Shown here: piece by piece, positions 21,492-29,457 of the stretch
Position numbering within the stretch: the stretch's first letter is position 1
Layout of the letters: each line of letters begins with the position of its first letter
From: Escherichia coli
GTDB taxonomy: Bacteria; Pseudomonadota; Gammaproteobacteria; Enterobacterales; Enterobacteriaceae
NCBI RefSeq assembly: GCF_011045215.1
Contig: NZ_CP049201.1
Length of the DNA: 64,000 nucleotides
Reading direction: 5' to 3' (one strand)
Notes under the pieces: generated by a model
Database searches by the model: none
Told to the model about the DNA's origin: nothing
Seen by the model: only the letters and a program-made list of their open reading frames with translations
Program-made: the position numbers and the translations under genes

Positions 21492-21647
21492 TAAAAGGTG
21501 TGTTACAGGGCAGAAATTTACTGCCCTGTATCATTGGATGAGCGCAAAGAGAATGACCGGTTTGTGAATGTAATTTTATGAATTTAAATGGTTTTATCTT
21601 TCAGTAGAAACCTGAAACGTTCATCAAACACTAAGGTTATTTCCTCA

Positions 21648-21675
21648 AGGGCAGATTCTTTTCTGCCCTTTTTTA
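21648..21675 (+). terminator. Rho-independent terminator downstream of fruA (stem aagggcaga/tctgccctt followed by a T5 run)
   Basis: Perfect 9-bp stem, 5-nt loop, then ttttt, ~155 bp after the fruA stop. A weaker hairpin at 21505-21529 (acagggcag...ctgccctgt) lacks a U-tract. Confidence 0.6.
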
Positions 21676-21914: not shown

Positions 21915-22856
21915 ATGCGCGAAAAGGATTATGTCGTAATTATAGGTTCGGCGAATATTGATGTCGCCGGATATTCACATGAATCATTAAATTATGCGGA
22001 TTCAAATCCAGGTAAAATAAAATTTACGCCTGGTGGAGTAGGGCGAAATATTGCACAAAATCTGGCGTTGCTGGGTAACAAAGCCTGGCTACTGAGCGCA
22101 GTAGGCAGTGATTTTTATGGCCAATCGCTGCTAACGCAAACCAATCAATCTGGCGTTTATGTCGATAAATGCCTGATTATGCCGGGAGAAAATACGTCGA
22201 GCTATTTATCATTACTCGATAATACCGGTGAAATGCTGGTTGCTATAAATGACATGAATATTAGCAACGCTATTACAGCTGAATATCTCGCACAGCACCG
22301 TGAATTTATTCAGAGGGCAAAGGTCATTGTCGCGGACTGTAATATCAGTGAAGAGGCACTGGCATGGATTCTGGATAATGCCGCCAACGTACCCGTATTT
22401 GTCGATCCGGTTTCAGCGTGGAAATGTGTCAAAGTGCGCGACCGTCTAAATCAGATCCACACTCTGAAGCCAAACCGCCTTGAAGCGGAAACCCTGAGTG
22501 GGATAGCGCTGTCAGGGCGTGAAGATGTGGCAAAGGTTGCCGCCTGGTTCCATCAACATGGCCTGAACCGACTGGTATTGAGCATGGGCGGCGACGGCGT
22601 TTATTACAGTGATATCAGCGGTGAAAGTGGTTGGTCTGCGCCGATCAAAACCAATGTTATTAATGTTACCGGAGCGGGCGATGCCATGATGGCGGGACTT
22701 GCTTCGTGTTGGGTAGACGGAATGCCGTTTGCCGAATCTGTTCGTTTCGCACAGGGATGTTCGTCAATGGCGCTCTCCTGTGAATACACCAATAACCCCG
22801 ATTTATCGATTGCCAACGTTATATCGTTAGTGGAGAACGCAGAATGTCTGAATTAA
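21915..22856 (+). CDS. psuK: Pseudouridine kinase PsuK (YeiC), PfkB family
   Basis: 313-aa ORF; PfkB motifs (GGVGRNIAQNLALLG, GAGDAMMAG). Confidence 0.88.
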   Translation: MREKDYVVIIGSANIDVAGYSHESLNYADSNPGKIKFTPGGVGRNIAQNLALLGNKAWLLSAVGSDFYGQSLLTQTNQSGVYVDKCLIMPGENTSSYLSLLDNTGEMLVAINDMNISNAITAEYLAQHREFIQRAKVIVADCNISEEALAWILDNAANVPVFVDPVSAWKCVKVRDRLNQIHTLKPNRLEAETLSGIALSGREDVAKVAAWFHQHGLNRLVLSMGGDGVYYSDISGESGWSAPIKTNVINVTGAGDAMMAGLASCWVDGMPFAESVRFAQGCSSMALSCEYTNNPDLSIANVISLVENAECLN

Positions 22857-23782
22857 AAATTTCCCCTGAATTATTACAAATTTCCCCGGAAGTGCAGGAC
22901 GCTTTAAAAAACAAAAAACCGGTTGTGGCGCTGGAATCGACCATTATTTCTCACGGGATGCCGTTCCCACAAAATGCCCAGACCGCAATTGAAGTTGAAG
23001 AAACTATTCGTAAACAGGGCGCTGTACCTGCCACTATCGCCATTATTGGCGGCGTGATGAAAGTTGGTTTAAGCAAAGAAGAAATTGAATTACTGGGTCG
23101 TGAAGGGCATAACGTGACCAAAGTTAGTCGTCGCGATTTACCTTTTGTTGTTGCCGCCGGAAAAAATGGCGCAACCACTGTGGCTTCAACGATGATTATT
23201 GCGGCGCTTGCCGGAATTAAAGTATTTGCCACCGGGGGAATTGGTGGTGTGCATCGCGGGGCGGAACATACCTTCGATATTTCTGCCGATTTGCAAGAAC
23301 TGGCAAATACTAATGTCACCGTTGTTTGTGCCGGGGCGAAATCTATTCTCGATTTAGGATTAACCACTGAGTATTTAGAAACCTTCGGTGTGCCGTTAAT
23401 TGGCTATCAGACTAAAGCGCTGCCTGCGTTTTTCTGCCGTACCAGCCCGTTTGACGTCAGCATTCGTCTCGACAGCGCCAGTGAAATTGCCCGTGCAATG
23501 GCGGTGAAATGGCAAAGCGGGCTGAACGGTGGCCTCGTGGTAGCGAACCCGATCCCGGAACAGTTTGCGATGCCAGAACACACTATCAATGCGGCGATCG
23601 ATCAGGCGGTAGCTGAAGCTGAAGCGCAGGGTGTTATTGGTAAAGAAAGTACGCCATTCCTGCTGGCGCGCGTTGCTGAACTGACCGGCGGTGACAGCCT
23701 GAAATCCAACATTCAACTGGTGTTCAACAACGCCATTCTGGCGAGTGAAATTGCCAAAGAATACCAGCGTCTCGCGGGTTAA
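22844..23782 (+). CDS. psuG: Pseudouridine-5'-phosphate glycosidase PsuG (YeiN)
   Basis: 312-aa ORF overlapping the psuK 3' end by 13 nt; IndA/PsuG-family sequence. Confidence 0.88.
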   Translation: MSELKISPELLQISPEVQDALKNKKPVVALESTIISHGMPFPQNAQTAIEVEETIRKQGAVPATIAIIGGVMKVGLSKEEIELLGREGHNVTKVSRRDLPFVVAAGKNGATTVASTMIIAALAGIKVFATGGIGGVHRGAEHTFDISADLQELANTNVTVVCAGAKSILDLGLTTEYLETFGVPLIGYQTKALPAFFCRTSPFDVSIRLDSASEIARAMAVKWQSGLNGGLVVANPIPEQFAMPEHTINAAIDQAVAEAEAQGVIGKESTPFLLARVAELTGGDSLKSNIQLVFNNAILASEIAKEYQRLAG

Positions 23783-23875
23783 TTTCTGACGGGCAGAAAG
23801 CCGTCGCCCGTACTCATCAAACATACCAAAACCTGGCGCTGACGCCGGGTTTACTGGCATGAAGGGAAAATCATT

Positions 23876-25126
23876 ATGGACATAATGAGAAGTGTTGTGG
23901 GGATGGTGGTGTTACTGGCAATAGCATTTCTGTTGTCGGTAAATAAAAAGAGCATCAGTTTGCGCACGGTTGGAGCCGCACTGCTGCTGCAAATCGCTAT
24001 TGGTGGCATCATGCTCTATTTTCCGCCGGGAAAATGGGCTGTAGAACAGGCGGCATTAGGCGTTCATAAAGTGATGTCTTACAGTGATGCCGGTAGCGCC
24101 TTCATTTTTGGTTCGCTGGTCGGGCCGAAAATGGATGTCCTCTTTGACGGTGCGGGTTTTATCTTCGCCTTTCGCGTACTCCCGGCGATTATCTTCGCCA
24201 CTGCGCTCATTAGTCTGCTGTACTACATTGGCGTGATGGGGCTGCTGATTCGCATCCTTGGCAGCATTTTCCAGAAAGCCCTCAACATCAGCAAAATCGA
24301 ATCTTTTGTTGCGGTTACCACTATTTTCCTCGGGCAAAATGAGATCCCGGCGATCGTTAAACCGTTTATCGATCGCATGAATCGCAACGAGTTGTTTACC
24401 GCAATTTGTAGCGGGATGGCGTCCATTGCGGGTTCGATGATGATTGGTTATGCCGGAATGGGCGTACCAATTGACTACCTGTTGGCGGCATCGCTGATGG
24501 CGATCCCCGGCGGTATTTTGTTTGCACGTATTCTTAGTCCGGCAACCGAGCCTTCGCAGGTCACATTTGAAAATCTGTCGTTCAGTGAAACGCCGCCAAA
24601 AAGCTTTATCGAAGCGGCGGCGAGCGGTGCGATGACCGGGTTGAAAATCGCCGCCGGTGTGGCGACGGTGGTAATGGCGTTTGTCGCAATTATTGCGCTG
24701 ATTAATGGCATTATCGGCGGAATTGGCGGCTGGTTTGGTTTTACCAATGCTTCTCTGGAAAGTATTTTTGGCTATGTGCTGGCACCGCTGGCGTGGATCA
24801 TGGGTGTGGACTGGAGTGATGCCAACCTTGCGGGTAGCCTGATTGGGCAGAAACTGGCGATTAACGAATTCGTCGCTTACCTGAGTTTCTCCCCATACCT
24901 GCAAACGGGCGGTACGCTGGAAGTGAAAACCATTGCGATTATCTCCTTTGCGCTTTGTGGTTTTGCTAACTTTGGTTCTATCGGTGTTGTCGTTGGGGCA
25001 TTTTCGGCTATTTCGCCAAAACGTGCACCGGAAATCGCTCAGCTTGGTTTACGGGCGCTGGCAGCAGCAACGCTTTCCAACCTGATGAGCGCGACCATTG
25101 CCGGGTTCTTTATTGGTTTAGCTTGA
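23876..25126 (+). CDS. psuT: Nucleoside (pseudouridine) transporter PsuT (YeiM), NupC/CNT family
   Basis: 416-aa polytopic ORF; paralogous to nupX in this window (mostly identical alignment by eye). Confidence 0.88.
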   Translation: MDIMRSVVGMVVLLAIAFLLSVNKKSISLRTVGAALLLQIAIGGIMLYFPPGKWAVEQAALGVHKVMSYSDAGSAFIFGSLVGPKMDVLFDGAGFIFAFRVLPAIIFATALISLLYYIGVMGLLIRILGSIFQKALNISKIESFVAVTTIFLGQNEIPAIVKPFIDRMNRNELFTAICSGMASIAGSMMIGYAGMGVPIDYLLAASLMAIPGGILFARILSPATEPSQVTFENLSFSETPPKSFIEAAASGAMTGLKIAAGVATVVMAFVAIIALINGIIGGIGGWFGFTNASLESIFGYVLAPLAWIMGVDWSDANLAGSLIGQKLAINEFVAYLSFSPYLQTGGTLEVKTIAIISFALCGFANFGSIGVVVGAFSAISPKRAPEIAQLGLRALAAATLSNLMSATIAGFFIGLA

Positions 25127-25193: not shown

Positions 25194-25853
25194 TTACTGC
25201 ATCATCCCGGAGAATTTATTCTCCGGGTCCATCTCCAGCGCCAGCCCTGACAACTGCTTTCTGTTTTTAATTAGATATCCTTTCTTGCTTTTAATTAATA
25301 AACCGTCGTGAATGAATTGCGCAAGAACATATAAAAGATGTCGATAAGAAACGCCTAAATACTCTGCCGCTTGCGTATGCTTTTCGTGATAAAGATCACC
25401 TTCTTGTGAGAGTAATATAAATGCTGCCAGGCGATTCACTAACGGAAATGATTGATTCTGAGTTAAAGAAACAATATTACGATAATTTTTATGACTTAAG
25501 GTGACGCAAAGTTTTCGTAAAAATAGGGTATCGTTTAATAACAGCGGACGGTAATGTTTCATAGGGAGCGCAAGGCACCAACACTCTTCAATCGCCTGTA
25601 CTGCACGTGGTTCATGGTCTTTATCGATTAACTCAATCTCGCCAATAAAACAGGGGGCGGCAAAGAAATCGATCAGCGACACGCGACCATTAGCTAGCGT
25701 GGCGTAAAGCCTGGCGCGGCCTCGCGTCAGGTAAAACAGCCAGGACGGCTGTTGCCCTTCCTGCACAATGTAGTCACGCGCTAAAAAATGAAACAGCCGC
25801 GTATCGGCTGAAACATCCGTTAAAAAGCAATCCTTAAACGCGGATTCACTCAT
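25194..25853 (-). CDS. yeiL: Crp/Fnr-family transcriptional regulator YeiL
   Basis: ORF 25194..25892; start at the internal ATG ([11 protein letters not shown]...), giving 219 aa; cNMP-binding-like N-terminus and C-terminal HTH. Confidence 0.85.
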
Positions 25854-26021
25854 CAATTGCAGCTTAAGATCATTATTGTGGATTTCTTTCACGATGTTTA
25901 TCCGCTATGAGATTTCTCATATTTAGCATACGTACGCTGTTGTTAAGATTCAATCATCGGCCCGGTCGAATTTTCTTTGCTGTAGAAAAAATAACGCAAC
26001 TGGAAACAGAGGAAATAAACA

Positions 26022-26963
26022 ATGGAAAAGAGAAAAATTATTCTGGATTGTGATCCGGGTCATGATGATGCTATTGCAATGATGATGGCAGCGAAACATC
26101 CGGCAATAGATTTATTAGGCATCACTATTGTAGCGGGTAATCAGACGCTTGATAAAACATTAATTAATGGCCTGAATGTTTGCCAGAAACTGGAGATTAA
26201 TGTTCCGGTTTATGCGGGGATGCCGCAGCCCATTATGCGTCAACAAATCGTTGCCGATAATATTCACGGTGAAACCGGACTGGATGGCCCGGTATTCGAG
26301 CCGCTGACCCGCCAGGCAGAAAGCACTCATGCGGTGAAATACATCATTGATACCCTGATGGCAAGCGATGGCGATATCACTCTGGTGCCGGTTGGTCCGC
26401 TTTCAAATATCGCGGTGGCAATGCGTATGCAACCCGCGATCCTGCCCAAAATCCGTGAAATTGTGCTAATGGGCGGCGCTTACGGTACAGGCAACTTCAC
26501 GCCATCTGCCGAGTTCAACATCTTTGCTGACCCGGAAGCCGCACGCGTGGTGTTCACCTCTGGCGTTCCATTAGTGATGATGGGCCTCGATCTTACCAAC
26601 CAGACCGTTTGCACCCCGGACGTAATTGCTCGGATGGAAAGGGCAGGCGGCCCTGCCGGAGAGCTGTTCAGCGACATCATGAACTTCACTCTCAAAACGC
26701 AGTTCGAAAACTACGGCCTGGCTGGCGGCCCGGTGCACGACGCCACCTGCATCGGTTATCTGATTAACCCTGATGGCATTAAAACCCAGGAGATGTACGT
26801 CGAAGTGGACGTCAACAGTGGCCCTTGTTATGGGCGTACCGTCTGCGACGAGCTGGGCGTTCTTGGCAAGCCCGCTAATACCAAAGTCGGCATCACTATT
26901 GATACCGACTGGTTCTGGGGCTTAGTCGAAGAGTGCGTGCGCGGCTACATCAAAACCCATTAA
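26022..26963 (+). CDS. rihB: Pyrimidine-specific ribonucleoside hydrolase RihB (YeiK)
   Basis: 313-aa ORF with the inosine-uridine nucleoside hydrolase signature DCDPGHDDA near the N-terminus. Confidence 0.92.
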
Positions 26964-27062
26964 GTGTTGATAACAAGCCGGGCCGGTATCGCAAGATGCA
27001 GGCCTGGCTATTTCTGATGGGCAGAAAGCCGTCGCCCAATATGACATGAAGAGATAATCACT

Positions 27063-28313
27063 ATGGATGTCATGAGAAGTGTTCTGGGAATGGTGGTATT
27101 GCTGACGATTGCGTTTTTACTGTCAGTAAACAAGAAGAAGATCAGCCTGCGTACCGTTGGCGCGGCGTTAGTGTTACAGGTCGTGATTGGCGGCATTATG
27201 CTTTGGTTACCGCCAGGGCGTTGGGTCGCTGAAAAAGTCGCTTTTGGCGTGCATAAAGTGATGGCGTACAGCGACGCGGGTAGCGCATTTATCTTCGGTT
27301 CTCTGGTCGGACCGAAAATGGACACCTTATTTGATGGCGCAGGATTTATCTTTGGTTTCAGAGTATTACCGGCAATTATCTTCGTCACCGCGCTGGTGAG
27401 TATTCTCTATTACATCGGTGTGATGGGGATCTTAATTCGCATTCTCGGCGGTATCTTCCAGAAAGCATTAAATATCAGCAAGATCGAGTCATTCGTCGCG
27501 GTCACTACCATTTTCCTCGGGCAAAACGAAATTCCGGCAATCGTCAAACCCTTTATCGATCGGCTGAATCGCAATGAATTATTTACAGCGATTTGTAGTG
27601 GCATGGCCTCAATTGCCGGTTCGACAATGATTGGTTACGCCGCACTGGGCGTACCTGTGGAATATTTGCTGGCGGCATCGTTAATGGCGATCCCAGGCGG
27701 GATCTTGTTTGCCCGCCTGTTAAGCCCGGCTACGGAATCTTCGCAGGTTTCTTTTAATAACCTCTCTTTCACCGAAACACCGCCAAAAAGCATTATTGAA
27801 GCCGCCGCGACAGGGGCAATGACCGGGCTGAAAATCGCTGCGGGTGTGGCAACAGTGGTGATGGCATTTGTTGCCATCATTGCGTTAATTAACGGTATTA
27901 TCGGCGGCGTTGGCGGCTGGTTTGGTTTTGAACATGCCTCGCTGGAGTCCATTTTAGGTTATCTGCTGGCCCCACTGGCGTGGGTAATGGGTGTTGACTG
28001 GACTGATGCGAATCTTGCCGGGAGTTTGATTGGACAGAAACTGGCAATAAATGAATTTGTCGCTTATCTCAATTTCTCACCCTATCTGCAAACGGCTGGC
28101 ACTCTGGATGCTAAAACCGTGGCGATTATTTCCTTCGCGTTGTGCGGTTTCGCTAACTTTGGTTCTATCGGGGTGGTGGTGGGGGCGTTTTCTGCGGTTG
28201 CGCCACACCGTGCGCCGGAAATCGCCCAGCTTGGTTTACGCGCGCTGGCGGCGGCGACACTTTCTAACCTGATGAGTGCCACCATTGCCGGGTTCTTTAT
28301 TGGTTTAGCGTAG
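27063..28313 (+). CDS. nupX: Nucleoside transporter NupX (YeiJ), NupC/CNT family
   Basis: 416-aa ORF, collinear paralogue of psuT (MDVMRSVLGMVVLL... versus MDIMRSVVGMVVLL...). Confidence 0.88.
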   Translation: MDVMRSVLGMVVLLTIAFLLSVNKKKISLRTVGAALVLQVVIGGIMLWLPPGRWVAEKVAFGVHKVMAYSDAGSAFIFGSLVGPKMDTLFDGAGFIFGFRVLPAIIFVTALVSILYYIGVMGILIRILGGIFQKALNISKIESFVAVTTIFLGQNEIPAIVKPFIDRLNRNELFTAICSGMASIAGSTMIGYAALGVPVEYLLAASLMAIPGGILFARLLSPATESSQVSFNNLSFTETPPKSIIEAAATGAMTGLKIAAGVATVVMAFVAIIALINGIIGGVGGWFGFEHASLESILGYLLAPLAWVMGVDWTDANLAGSLIGQKLAINEFVAYLNFSPYLQTAGTLDAKTVAIISFALCGFANFGSIGVVVGAFSAVAPHRAPEIAQLGLRALAAATLSNLMSATIAGFFIGLA

Positions 28314-28368: not shown

Positions 28369-29457
28369 TTACACCATTGGCACTAATGAAAGCGCGTTAT
28401 CGGCAGACAGGGTAGGGTTGTTTAAGCTGCCGCTGGCGCGTGAAATTGCCGCGCAGGCCATCGCAAAACGGGCGCTGTCACGGAAATTGTTTCCTTCCAG
28501 AAAGCTATATACCAGGCCCGCCATAAAACCATCGTCAGCACCAAAACTGTCTACTGTCGTATGCGCTGGTGCGGTCAGCAAAAATTGTTCTCCATCCTTT
28601 TCGCTGCAATAAACTGACTCATCGGGCAAATAAACAAACAGTTGCTGAACACCTTGCTGATGCAACGCATTCACTGCAGCATTACGGTCAGCATCGCTGG
28701 TGATCGCCTGTCCCCATAAAATTTCCAGCTCCGGTAAAGTGGGTTTCAGGGTGTGAATATGCGCCAGCCAGTGTTTGATTTTGCCCGCTTTGAATTCTGA
28801 AACGGTATCGACAAACACCGGGATCTCACCAGCGAGGGTAAAGACCCATTCCAGCGCCTCGGCTGTCAGGTTGCAATCAGCCAGTACCACGCCCGCATGA
28901 CGAAGTAAATCGCGCGACCCGTTCAATAATTGCGGCGATAACTGTTCCAGCAGATGGGTATCGTTAATCGCCAACACGGTTTCATCGTCTCGATTGGCAA
29001 TTGCCAGATACGTCGATGTGCTTTGGCCATGTAAACGAACGCAGCCGGAGACATTCACGCCGGCGCGGCGCGTTTCTTCCAGGAGCATTTCGCCATAAAA
29101 GTCATCGCCAATCACTGAAAGCAAATGGACGTCACGGCCTAACAGCGCCAGATTGTGGGCGATGTTGCGTCCCACGCCGCCCGCTGAGCAATGAATTGTA
29201 CCGGGATGAGAAGCCGATTGCGGGTAACGGATATCCGCCATCCCGCGAATATCCATATTGATTGTCCCCACCACTACGCAGTATTCCTGCTCGGTGAGAA
29301 TGTAACCTTTGCCTTTAATCCGGCCTTTGCGCATTAAATCCATAATATGCGCCGCAACGCGCGAACGGCTGATTTGCAGCATGTCCGCAATTTCGTTCTG
29401 CTGAATCAGCGGGTTACGCCGTAAAATTGCAAGGATCTCCTTTTCCCGGTTATTCAT
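28369..29457 (-). CDS. yeiI: Putative HTH-fused PfkB-family sugar/nucleoside kinase YeiI
   Basis: 362-aa ORF; N-terminal HTH-like segment (EKEILAILRRNPLIQQNEIADMLQISRSRV), then a PfkB kinase domain sharing the GGVGRNIAHNLALLG motif with PsuK. Confidence 0.85.
   Translation of the reverse strand: MNNREKEILAILRRNPLIQQNEIADMLQISRSRVAAHIMDLMRKGRIKGKGYILTEQEYCVVVGTINMDIRGMADIRYPQSASHPGTIHCSAGGVGRNIAHNLALLGRDVHLLSVIGDDFYGEMLLEETRRAGVNVSGCVRLHGQSTSTYLAIANRDDETVLAINDTHLLEQLSPQLLNGSRDLLRHAGVVLADCNLTAEALEWVFTLAGEIPVFVDTVSEFKAGKIKHWLAHIHTLKPTLPELEILWGQAITSDADRNAAVNALHQQGVQQLFVYLPDESVYCSEKDGEQFLLTAPAHTTVDSFGADDGFMAGLVYSFLEGNNFRDSARFAMACAAISRASGSLNNPTLSADNALSLVPMV

Follow-up and report, generated by a model that had tools for sequence, protein, structure and literature searches.

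The stretch of Escherichia coli DNA considered here (the window: 64,000 nucleotides of contig NZ_CP049201.1) contains two paralogous genes for nucleoside transporters, psuT and nupX, each preceded in the same orientation by a 27-nucleotide element, TTTCTGAYGGGCAGAAAGCCGTCGCCC. This element is the form that a small RNA stem-loop, designated H1 below, takes in Escherichia; the stem-loop occupies the leaders of the genes for the PsuT/NupX transporters of the CNT family. The genes of the window run in the order fruBKA, psuK, psuG, psuT, yeiL (minus strand), rihB, nupX, and then yeiI and nfo (minus strand); their names come from the list of open reading frames and from the RefSeq annotation of an E. 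coli record that is 99.5% identical over the 201-nt psuG-psuT junction. The genes closest to the element, and its two copies, are:

psuK, 21915-22856
psuG, 22844-23782, plus strand: the gene 5' of copy 1, with its stop codon TAA at 23780-23782
27-mer, copy 1, 23783-23809, plus strand: exact match in the psuG-psuT intercistronic region
psuT, 23876-25126, plus strand: CNT-family nucleoside transporter
yeiL, 25194-25892, minus strand
rihB, 26022-26963, plus strand: the gene 5' of copy 2
27-mer, copy 2, 27011-27037, plus strand: exact match in the rihB-nupX intercistronic region
nupX, 27063-28313, plus strand: paralogue of psuT (88% amino-acid identity), with its ATG at 27063

Copy 1 begins with the base directly 3' of the psuG stop codon; between the end of copy 2 and the nupX ATG there are 25 nt. 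The original prediction that two near-identical copies occupy these places is borne out, with the second of them at 27011-27037 and not at 27010-27036: the two matches are the only ones in the window, no further match appears even when 3 mismatches are allowed, and at that tolerance none of 100 dinucleotide-preserving shuffles yields one. Both copies are found unchanged in E. coli K-12 MG1655 (NC_000913.3, at ~2257394-2257428 and ~2254163-2254197, minus strand). They agree at 26 of 27 positions, which is far above neutral expectation, because the third codon positions of psuT and nupX are only 51% identical (78% for the DNA as a whole, 88% for the protein) and only 8 of the 1225 27-nt windows of the two coding sequences are as alike (26/27 or better). 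The further claim, that the surrounding intergenic sequence has diverged, holds in part: the motif does stand out, but the nucleotide preceding it can be aligned too, as can some 22 nt around the ribosome-binding site. Relative to the nupX leader, the psuT leader carries a 41-nt insertion that contains a second hairpin.

The conserved stem-loop H1

How widely is the element distributed, and how much of it is conserved? Among complete E. coli genomes, 5424 of 5426 contain it (32-nt query), at a median of 2 places per genome and a maximum of 3. Repetitive extragenic palindromic (REP) sequences and BIME elements would be expected in tens to hundreds of copies per genome, and the motif is not one of them. 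For the comparison of species, one genome from each was scanned with protein guidance, which gave 59 loci, and extra contigs were drawn from the protein collection; 51 distinct leader sequences, representing about 20 named genera and metagenome contigs, were aligned (earlier tests were run on 44 sequences). The two protein searches yielded almost only relatives that are at least 83% identical, and distant CNT homologues, such as Vibrio vcCNT, lay outside their reach. The Enterobacterales have two types of operon, psuK-psuG-psuT and rihB-nupX (the latter with yeiL upstream of rihB and divergently transcribed), and the element precedes the transporter gene in both.

A covariance model built from the leader alignment was run on the window and on 541 kb of related loci. 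It finds two sites in the window, with scores of 39.3 bits (23783-23817) and 35.9 bits (27011-27045); the next best hit scores 13 bits. In the related loci, hits above 20 bits are confined to the sense strand and to the stretch that follows psuG or rihB and immediately precedes the transporter gene, with two exceptions: in Escherichia sp. MOD1-EC7003 (L028, 1747-1781) psuT is deleted and H1 still stands right after psuG (36 bits), and Hafnia has a palindromic copy at which each of the two strands scores ~27 bits. At distant CNT loci the model gives no hit. The median of two places per genome and the two model hits in the window uphold the proposal that the motif is specific to the two paralogous transporters, as opposed to being a genome-wide repeat; the search for further copies that had been suggested as a check likewise separates it from REP sequences (no more than 3 places in any genome). 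The fruA terminator (AAGGGCAGATTCTTTTCTGCCCTTTTTT, 21647-21674) has GGGCAG in common with H1 and gives a chance-level model hit of 11 bits; it is unrelated.

The conserved unit is not, however, the 27-mer that had been put forward: it is shorter and shifted 3', a 19-nt core, GGGCAG-NNN-GC-N-GTCGCCC, with one or two flanking bases on each side, and the first 6-7 bases of the 27-mer vary outside Escherichia. The 5' half, GGGCAG, and the 3' half, GTCGCCC, are present in nearly all of the 51 sequences. Over the 15 core columns mean pairwise identity is 93% (50 of the 51 sequences, 1225 pairs), as against 46% at the four-fold degenerate sites of the adjacent transporter genes, 40% in the 4 variable loop columns and 36% in the flanks. 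The core is thus kept across four enterobacterial families and in both operon types while neutral divergence is saturated, and the surmise that selection has retained the motif is sustained by the difference between core and degenerate sites.

The core folds. Its two copies in the window are:

H1 of the psuT leader, 23789-23811, plus strand: ACGGGC-A(bulge)-G-AAAGCCGU-C-GCCCGU, from the minimum-free-energy fold, covariation and a covariance-model hit
H1 of the nupX leader, 27018-27038, plus strand: UGGGC-A-G-AAAGCCGU-C-GCCCA, from the fold and a covariance-model hit

The consensus is 5'-N-Y-GGGC-A-G-NNNGCNGU-C-GCCC-R-N-3': a stem of 6-7 bp, an A that is bulged or mismatched, an additional G-C pair and a loop of 8 nt. 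The minimum free energies are -11.1 kcal/mol for the psuT copy (z -2.4) and -8.3 kcal/mol for the nupX copy (z -2.1). In the alignment of 51 sequences the NY-GGGC..GCCC-RN stem is paired in 91.9% of cells, compared with 33-51% in controls with slid 3' partners; four of the seven pairs have changes on both sides, with a covariation score that none of 500 shuffles reaches, and RNAalifold independently gives the 5 central pairs of the stem. Pair 8-28 is CG in 30 sequences, UA in 16, GU or UG in 2 and unpaired in 3; pair 7-29 is AU in 17 and GC in 10; pair 14-23 is GC in 43, GU in 5 and AU in 2. The rare changes of the core are compensated as well: AGGCAAC..GTTGCCT in Hafnia, GGGCGA..GTTGCCC in a metagenome contig (L064) and AGTC..GACC, a change from G-C to U-A, in Enterobacter sichuanensis (L021). 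Pairs kept by compensatory changes are the mark of a cis-regulatory RNA stem-loop, and H1 displays them. The upper stem can be drawn in two registers, one with a bulged A and a G-C pair (92% paired), the other with an A·C mismatch and a G·U pair (81%); Hafnia, L064 and L069 fit the latter instead, and either register may be the right one.

The same comparisons do away with both of the structures first drawn for the 27-mer. The inverted repeat TTTCTG-N5-CAGAAA is confined to Escherichia, and in 44 sequences its cells pair to 47%, which is the level of slid controls. In the hairpin GAYGG(G)C/GCCGTC, 2 of 6 pairs are broken in about 30 of the 44 sequences and covariation does not exceed that of controls. 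The single C/T difference between the copies, read at first as a change from G-C to G-U inside the 27-mer, in fact changes in concert with the position immediately 3' of the 27-mer (G at 23810, A at 27038), ACGGGC..GCCCGT in the psuT leader corresponding to ATGGGC..GCCCA in the nupX leader. An H-type pseudoknot, TTTCT/AGAAA combined with ACGGGC/GCCCGT, was also tried (Ewingella, with AAACT..AGTTT, prompted it), and its stem 1 fails the comparative test.

Two individual loci are worth a remark. The metagenome contig L064 (from the Joint Genome Institute, JGI) is arranged differently: rihB, the transporter gene, psuK and psuG follow one another on one strand, and yeiL lies upstream on the other. 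The H1 of this contig, at 1410-1444, is divergent yet still pairs (CGGGCGATCCCGGGTTGCCCG). In E. coli 13C1065T (L071, ~1500-1530) rihB is truncated by an IS1 insertion and H1 of nupX has undergone a change from GCCC to GCCA, which breaks the top G-C pair and may represent the decay of an inactivated operon.

No family of Rfam 15 reaches its gathering threshold for the element, and nothing else comes below E = 0.05, a 111-nt query and permissive thresholds included; the best overlapping hit, isrJ at 20.1 bits (gathering score 37), and Yfr1 at 19.0 bits are at chance level where gathering scores are 37-38. H1 is an unnamed conserved leader stem-loop that is unusually constrained in sequence.

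Why, then, are the two Escherichia copies alike even where the core is not conserved? They share 7 bases of the 5' flank and 4 variable loop bases (the TTTCTGA flank, AAA, and the C of GCC). At these 11 variable positions the pair of copies from one Phytobacter genome has nothing in common, and those of Citrobacter amalonaticus share 7. The CTGA flank is otherwise typical of rih-type copies (Citrobacter, Salmonella, Buttiauxella). The comparison suggests that the near-identity in Escherichia is a separate effect, best explained by gene conversion between the leaders: a short tract would have been transferred from the nupX leader to the psuT leader in an ancestor of Escherichia, and the stem base would then have changed from U·G to C-G. 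Intermediate states of this change would still be segregating in E. coli and E. albertii.

Strand, transcription and leader architecture

H1 is asymmetric. The covariance model scores its two copies at 39.3 and 35.9 bits on the sense strand and at 9.2 bits on the opposite strand, which makes a dyad-symmetric DNA operator, as had been envisaged, unlikely; Hafnia alone has a symmetric copy. The foot of the psuT copy is polymorphic in E. coli (L070, L072, L073): AC (K-12 and the window), GC or GU stand opposite a constant GU, giving the haplotypes A-U/C-G, G·U/C-G and G·U/U·G. (A technical note: the GT state of the foot is a member of a two-mismatch class that comprises ~1040 of 5430 matching records, of which two records were read.) E. 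albertii has the U·G state at the base of the stem. A second hairpin of the psu-type leaders, H2, has a conserved U·G of its own (UG in 19, CG in 2 and UA in 1 of the 22 leaders of the RNAalifold consensus). Read as pairs, these wobble substitutions appear compatible only with sense-strand RNA, which they favor because the same states would be A·C mismatches on the opposite strand.

Where would transcription of H1 begin? A consensus scan finds no σ70-like promoter on the plus strand of either intergenic region, and one data set of differential RNA sequencing (dRNA-seq) and Term-seq (PMC7815308) has neither a transcription start nor a 3' end in either of them, the operons being almost silent in laboratory culture. 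The same dRNA-seq data (PMC7815308) place an "orphan" start 237 nt upstream of psuK (NC_000913.3 2259533, minus strand; ~21680 of the window) and another start antisense to yeiL, just 3' of psuT and directed towards rihB (NC_000913.3 2255991, minus strand; ~25220 of the window). We infer, from the sense-strand wobble pairs, the intercistronic position and the lack of a mapped start site, that H1 is transcribed from an upstream promoter.

The leaders in which H1 is embedded have further elements:

H0 hairpin, 26976-27009, plus strand: between the rihB stop codon and H1, AGCCGGGCC..GGCCTGGCT, from a fold of the intergenic region
C/A-rich unpaired block, 23812-23831, plus strand: consensus ATATCAGACATACCAAAA, in E. 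coli ACTCATCAAACATACCAAAA, from the cross-genus leader alignment
H2 hairpin, 23829-23852, plus strand: AAACCTGGCG-CTGA-CGCCGGGTTT, terminator-like with only three U after it, from the RNAalifold consensus of 22 leaders
psuT translation-initiation region, 23854-23878, plus strand: CTGGCATGAAGGGAAAATCATTATG, homologous to its nupX counterpart
nupX translation-initiation region, 27042-27065, plus strand: TGACATGAAGAGATAATCACTATG

In rih-type leaders the rihB stop codon is followed by H0, by some 9-13 A/U-rich nucleotides and by H1; in psu-type leaders only 6-12 nt separate the psuG stop codon from H1. Beyond H1 both types continue with a short linker, the single-stranded block ATATCAGACATACCAAAA and the initiation region CCTGGCATGAAGGGAAAATCATTATG. 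Psu-type leaders have the C/A-rich block, as do many of the rih type, but from the nupX leader of the window it is deleted. H2 (AAACCTGGCG-N4-CGCCGGGTTT, with 3-4 U after it) occurs in nearly all psu-type leaders and is absent from most of the rih type. In front of psuT it lies 24 nt before the start codon, flanked by a direct repeat, CCTGGC; it could be a partial terminator, and is not listed by the terminator scan of the window.

Most rih-type loci have a hairpin at the position of H0, of unrelated sequence and often of the form CAGGCxx..xxGCCTG. H0, which could be a weak terminator or a stabilizer of rihB, is thus conserved in structure and not in sequence, and offers, within the same leaders, a control that represents hairpins needed only for their shape. 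H1 is constrained beyond the need to fold, because its core stands at 93% identity when degenerate sites stand at 46%, and because H0, its neighbor, keeps its structure and not its sequence.

H1 is separated from the ATG by 25 to 68 nt at different loci, and direct occlusion of the ribosome-binding site is unlikely because of this variation. A search of leader and coding sequence with RNAduplex placed the long-range partners of H1 differently from species to species. The loop has no conserved pairing with H2 or with the block 3' of H1, and neither a conserved pseudoknot nor an expression platform was found in the leaders. Classical attenuation, in which the 3' arm of H1 would pair with the 5' arm of H2, was considered and dropped: about 4 complementary G-C pairs can be found by eye, and most rih-type leaders have no H2.

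What H1 might do

A shared cis-regulatory role, as first proposed for the two transporters, is a natural and, given the conservation, a reasonable reading. The form of it that we prefer, tentatively and as no better than a possible explanation, is that H1 is a cis-acting hairpin, recognized sequence-specifically, that controls the transporter cistron post-transcriptionally. H1 would be part, in sense orientation, of the polycistronic psuK-psuG-psuT and rihB-nupX transcripts and would be recognized, most probably by a protein; recognition would set the share of the upstream-initiated transcript that becomes stable, translatable transporter mRNA, and would do so through processing, decay or read-through and not by direct masking of the ribosome-binding site. 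Sequence-specific recognition is probable because the sequence of H0 turns over freely while that of H1, unpaired bases included, stays conserved. Processing, decay or read-through would be favored because H1 is intercistronic and has for neighbors a weak hairpin of terminator-like form and stretches of A/U- and C/A-rich single strand. A trans-acting partner, and the direction and mode of its effect, belong to what we infer.

A number of observations weigh against this proposal or against parts of it. Two related Enterobacter sequences have C·A at the covarying pair, the opposite of what sense-strand RNA predicts. The argument for upstream transcription is weakened by its reliance on silence in data sets in which the operons are barely expressed. 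A weak peak in systematic evolution of ligands by exponential enrichment (SELEX) with the σS holoenzyme has been assigned to psuG; in the older coordinate system it would lie near the psuG 3' end, and it may mark a promoter inside the operon, close to the intergenic region. The transporter gene of some species may have its own promoter, overlapping H1, since hairpins separate rihB from H1 and the one in Pluralibacter (L037) is followed by a T-run. The conserved loop is lost and the hairpin kept in Hafnia (L035), Izhakiella (L036), Pluralibacter (L037), the metagenome contig L064 and the psu copy of Entomohabitans (L030): in these divergent lineages a purely structural role fits better than specific recognition. 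Finally, no candidate for a binding partner has been identified, none being encoded consistently nearby, and the searchable literature makes no mention of the element or of an experiment on its effect on expression.

The Entomohabitans case is an observation in its own right: in the psu leader of Entomohabitans teleogrylli (L030, ~590-700) an unrelated 16-bp hairpin, CAGGCGCTGTTCCCGG..CCGGGAAACAGCGCTG, stands in place of H1 before the conserved ATATCAGGCATAC block.

What other explanations can be offered? That H1 is purely structural is unlikely, if seriously to be reckoned with. It would then be a barrier to 3'-5' exonuclease or a 5'-proximal protective stem left after RNase E cleavage nearby, in the A/U- or C/A-rich single strand, and would uncouple the stabilities of the enzyme and transporter cistrons without a specific partner. 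The layout is right for this: hairpin, single strand, hairpin (H0 and H1 in the rih type, H1 and H2 in the psu type), with H1 some 6-13 nt after the stop codon or H0, across an A/U-rich linker. The variable distance to the ATG, the retention of a hairpin with a changed loop in divergent lineages and the unrelated replacement in Entomohabitans all agree with it. It leaves unexplained why 15 positions, unpaired ones included, should be 93% identical when the neutral level is 46%, and why flips from G-C to C-G are nearly absent from the four upper pairs in 51 sequences; H0 demonstrates that a structure-only hairpin turns its sequence over freely, and H1, at -8 to -11 kcal/mol, is of modest strength. 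An operator in DNA, or part of an internal promoter, bound by a regulator such as YeiL, YeiI or CytR (the candidates first named), is decidedly unlikely. GGGC..GCCC has partial dyad symmetry, and in Hafnia the copy is fully palindromic; the hairpins between rihB and H1 (terminator-like with its T-run in L037) make an internal promoter conceivable, and the weak σS peak is the only experimental hint of one. Nevertheless the asymmetry is conserved (39 against 9 bits), the invariant G-C at the center and the position of the bulge are at odds with a symmetric dimer site, and the wobble substitutions at the stem base keep pairing only in sense-strand RNA. No σ70-like promoter emerges from the plus-strand scan, and the hexamers of the one candidate example (CTGAYG-N17-CAATAT in nupX), which were derived by hand, are weak and are not conserved in psu-type leaders; nor do half-sites of the CRP or CytR type flank the motif in the window. 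Neither YeiI nor YeiL can be its universal partner, because the motif persists in rih-only loci, which have no yeiI, and in psu-only loci, which have no yeiL.

It is quite improbable that H1, with or without the single-stranded block, is a mini-riboswitch that senses a pyrimidine nucleoside or a derivative and tunes uptake accordingly. Conserved bulge and loop bases on a covarying stem, in the leaders of nucleoside-transporter genes of two operons and belonging to no known family, have something of that look, and small natural aptamers do exist (preQ1-I, guanidine-II). At ~23 nt and with one helix H1 is nevertheless very small for a selective pocket; neither an expression platform nor a conserved pseudoknot was found with it, E. 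coli nupX has lost the block downstream, H1 stands at varying distances from the ribosome-binding site and from H2, and H2 itself is absent from most leaders of the rih type. Very improbable, too, is a small regulatory RNA (sRNA) made up of psu-type H1, block and H2 and derived from the psuG 3' untranslated region, or else an sRNA binding site in the block to which H1 is accessory. The conserved C/A-rich block, the terminator-like H2 and a weak likeness to two-hairpin families (isrJ and Yfr1, both well below their gathering scores) speak for it; these Rfam scores are, however, at the level of chance, and H2, with 3-4 U, lies 20 nt before the psuT ribosome-binding site, so that full termination would silence psuT. 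Moreover, most rih-type leaders have H1 without H2, E. coli nupX has H1 without the block, and the dRNA-seq and Term-seq data set has no 3' end there. That the identity of the copies is simply a by-product of gene conversion or duplication, or of a short leader reading frame (ATG GGC AGA AAG CCG TCG CCC.. in nupX), can hardly be credited. Identity at 11 of 11 variable positions in Escherichia, with 0 of 11 in Phytobacter and 7 of 11 in Citrobacter amalonaticus, is what conversion would leave behind, and an ATG is found in the 5' arm of most rih-type copies. But conversion accounts only for the surplus that is specific to Escherichia: the core is conserved over four families and both operon types. 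The psu-type copies have ACG, CCG, GCG or TCG where the ATG would be, there is no Shine-Dalgarno sequence, and the variable positions do not fall on third codon positions. As a complete explanation, the by-product is already contradicted by the covariation and by the conservation of the core.

A bolder version of sequence-specific recognition of H1 is unlikely but worth stating: H1 might be the sensor of a new and very small class of riboregulator, specific to the Enterobacterales, either as a mini-aptamer for a pyrimidine nucleoside or a pseudouridine-derived ligand or as the docking site of a sequence-specific RNA-binding regulator. Such a riboregulator would gate the uptake of pseudouridine and pyrimidine nucleosides independently of both operon promoters. 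More generally, a 15-base element at 93% identity would mark a control point that acts after the start of transcription and serves these two transporters only. If a specific protein or ligand binds H1, it would represent a new class of small regulatory RNA; if not, it is one more stabilizing hairpin. E. coli K-12 itself carries H1, yet no RNA family or regulatory site has been described there.

Some observations on the neighborhood may be added. Silence of rihB has been reported in K-12, and the substrate of PsuT has been assigned only from operon context. Homologues of YeiI (28369-29457, minus strand; L065, L067) have an N-terminal HTH_24 domain and a PfkB sugar-kinase domain, and they accompany the psu operon and not rih-only loci, so that YeiI is a candidate for a pseudouridine-responsive regulator or kinase. 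The PsuT homologue of one 7.2-kb NCBI contig (P0001) is annotated as 463 amino acids long, with an N-terminal extension of 47 residues; a start codon has probably been called inside the leader. Adaptation in the mouse gut has repeatedly targeted the region upstream of psuK (PMC9509342).

Comparison with known systems

Set beside the standard classes of leader element, H1 falls outside most of them: 1) as an intrinsic terminator it fails, since what follows is GUACUCAUC (psuT) or AAUAUGACA (nupX) and not a U-tract; the terminator scan does not list it, and among the other genera of the 51-sequence alignment no copy is followed by a T-run. 2) A riboswitch platform is not in evidence: the distance to the ATG ranges over 25-68 nt, and H2, mostly absent from the rih type, does not overlap H1. 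3) A leader-peptide attenuator would need a translated frame; an ATG is found only in rih-type copies, with no Shine-Dalgarno sequence upstream. 4) In antiterminators of the ribonucleic antiterminator (RAT) type the antiterminating hairpin overlaps the terminator; H1 (23789-23811) and H2 (23829-23852) are separated by the block, and form together in the minimum-free-energy fold. A number of other motifs were compared by eye, as leads only, and misfit the invariant positions: sites for σ54, σE, σ32 and CytR, FtsK-orienting polar sequences (KOPS), the selenocysteine insertion sequence (SECIS), the T-arm and RluA, as well as the iron-responsive element (IRE), the K-turn, boxA/boxB and the GcvB seed.

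With the CRP/CytR-controlled promoters of nupC, nupG and tsx, H1 has in common that it is a cis element preceding a gene of the same functional class; those elements are double-stranded DNA operators flanked by CRP sites, whereas the signals in H1 (wobble substitutions, asymmetry, and a place between cistrons where no promoter is recognizable) point to RNA. Intercistronic stabilizers (the REP sequence of malE-malF, the papB-papA processing region) resemble H1 in standing between the genes for an enzyme and a transporter with single-stranded stretches alongside, but these are structure-only or are repeated throughout the genome, while H1 has two copies and a strong constraint on sequence. The attenuators of rph-pyrE and pyrBI that are sensitive to uridine triphosphate (UTP) are likewise sites in leaders or between cistrons, related to pyrimidines and, like psu-type H1, followed by a terminator-like hairpin (for H1, H2); a ribosome terminating 6-12 nt before psu-type H1 could reach it, as in the pyr attenuators. 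Unlike them, H1 has no U-tract and no conserved alternative pairing with H2, and in most of the rih type H2 is missing and a different hairpin precedes H1. The preQ1-I and guanidine-II (mini-ykkC) riboswitches are of similar size and, like H1, precede a transporter gene with a short helix whose loop has conserved bases; H1 differs in having no conserved pseudoknot tail, no second identical hairpin and no identified expression platform. The RAT sites of BglG and SacY, the ANTAR dual hairpins and the bulged-A operator hairpin bound by the MS2 coat protein, finally, have a consensus that H1 does not resemble, and H1, at 17-20 nt from H2 (which most rih-type leaders lack), does not overlap a terminator; it is nevertheless with these that H1 shares its general design: a short stem-loop in a leader, of fixed orientation, with invariant bases in bulge and loop and a covarying stem base.

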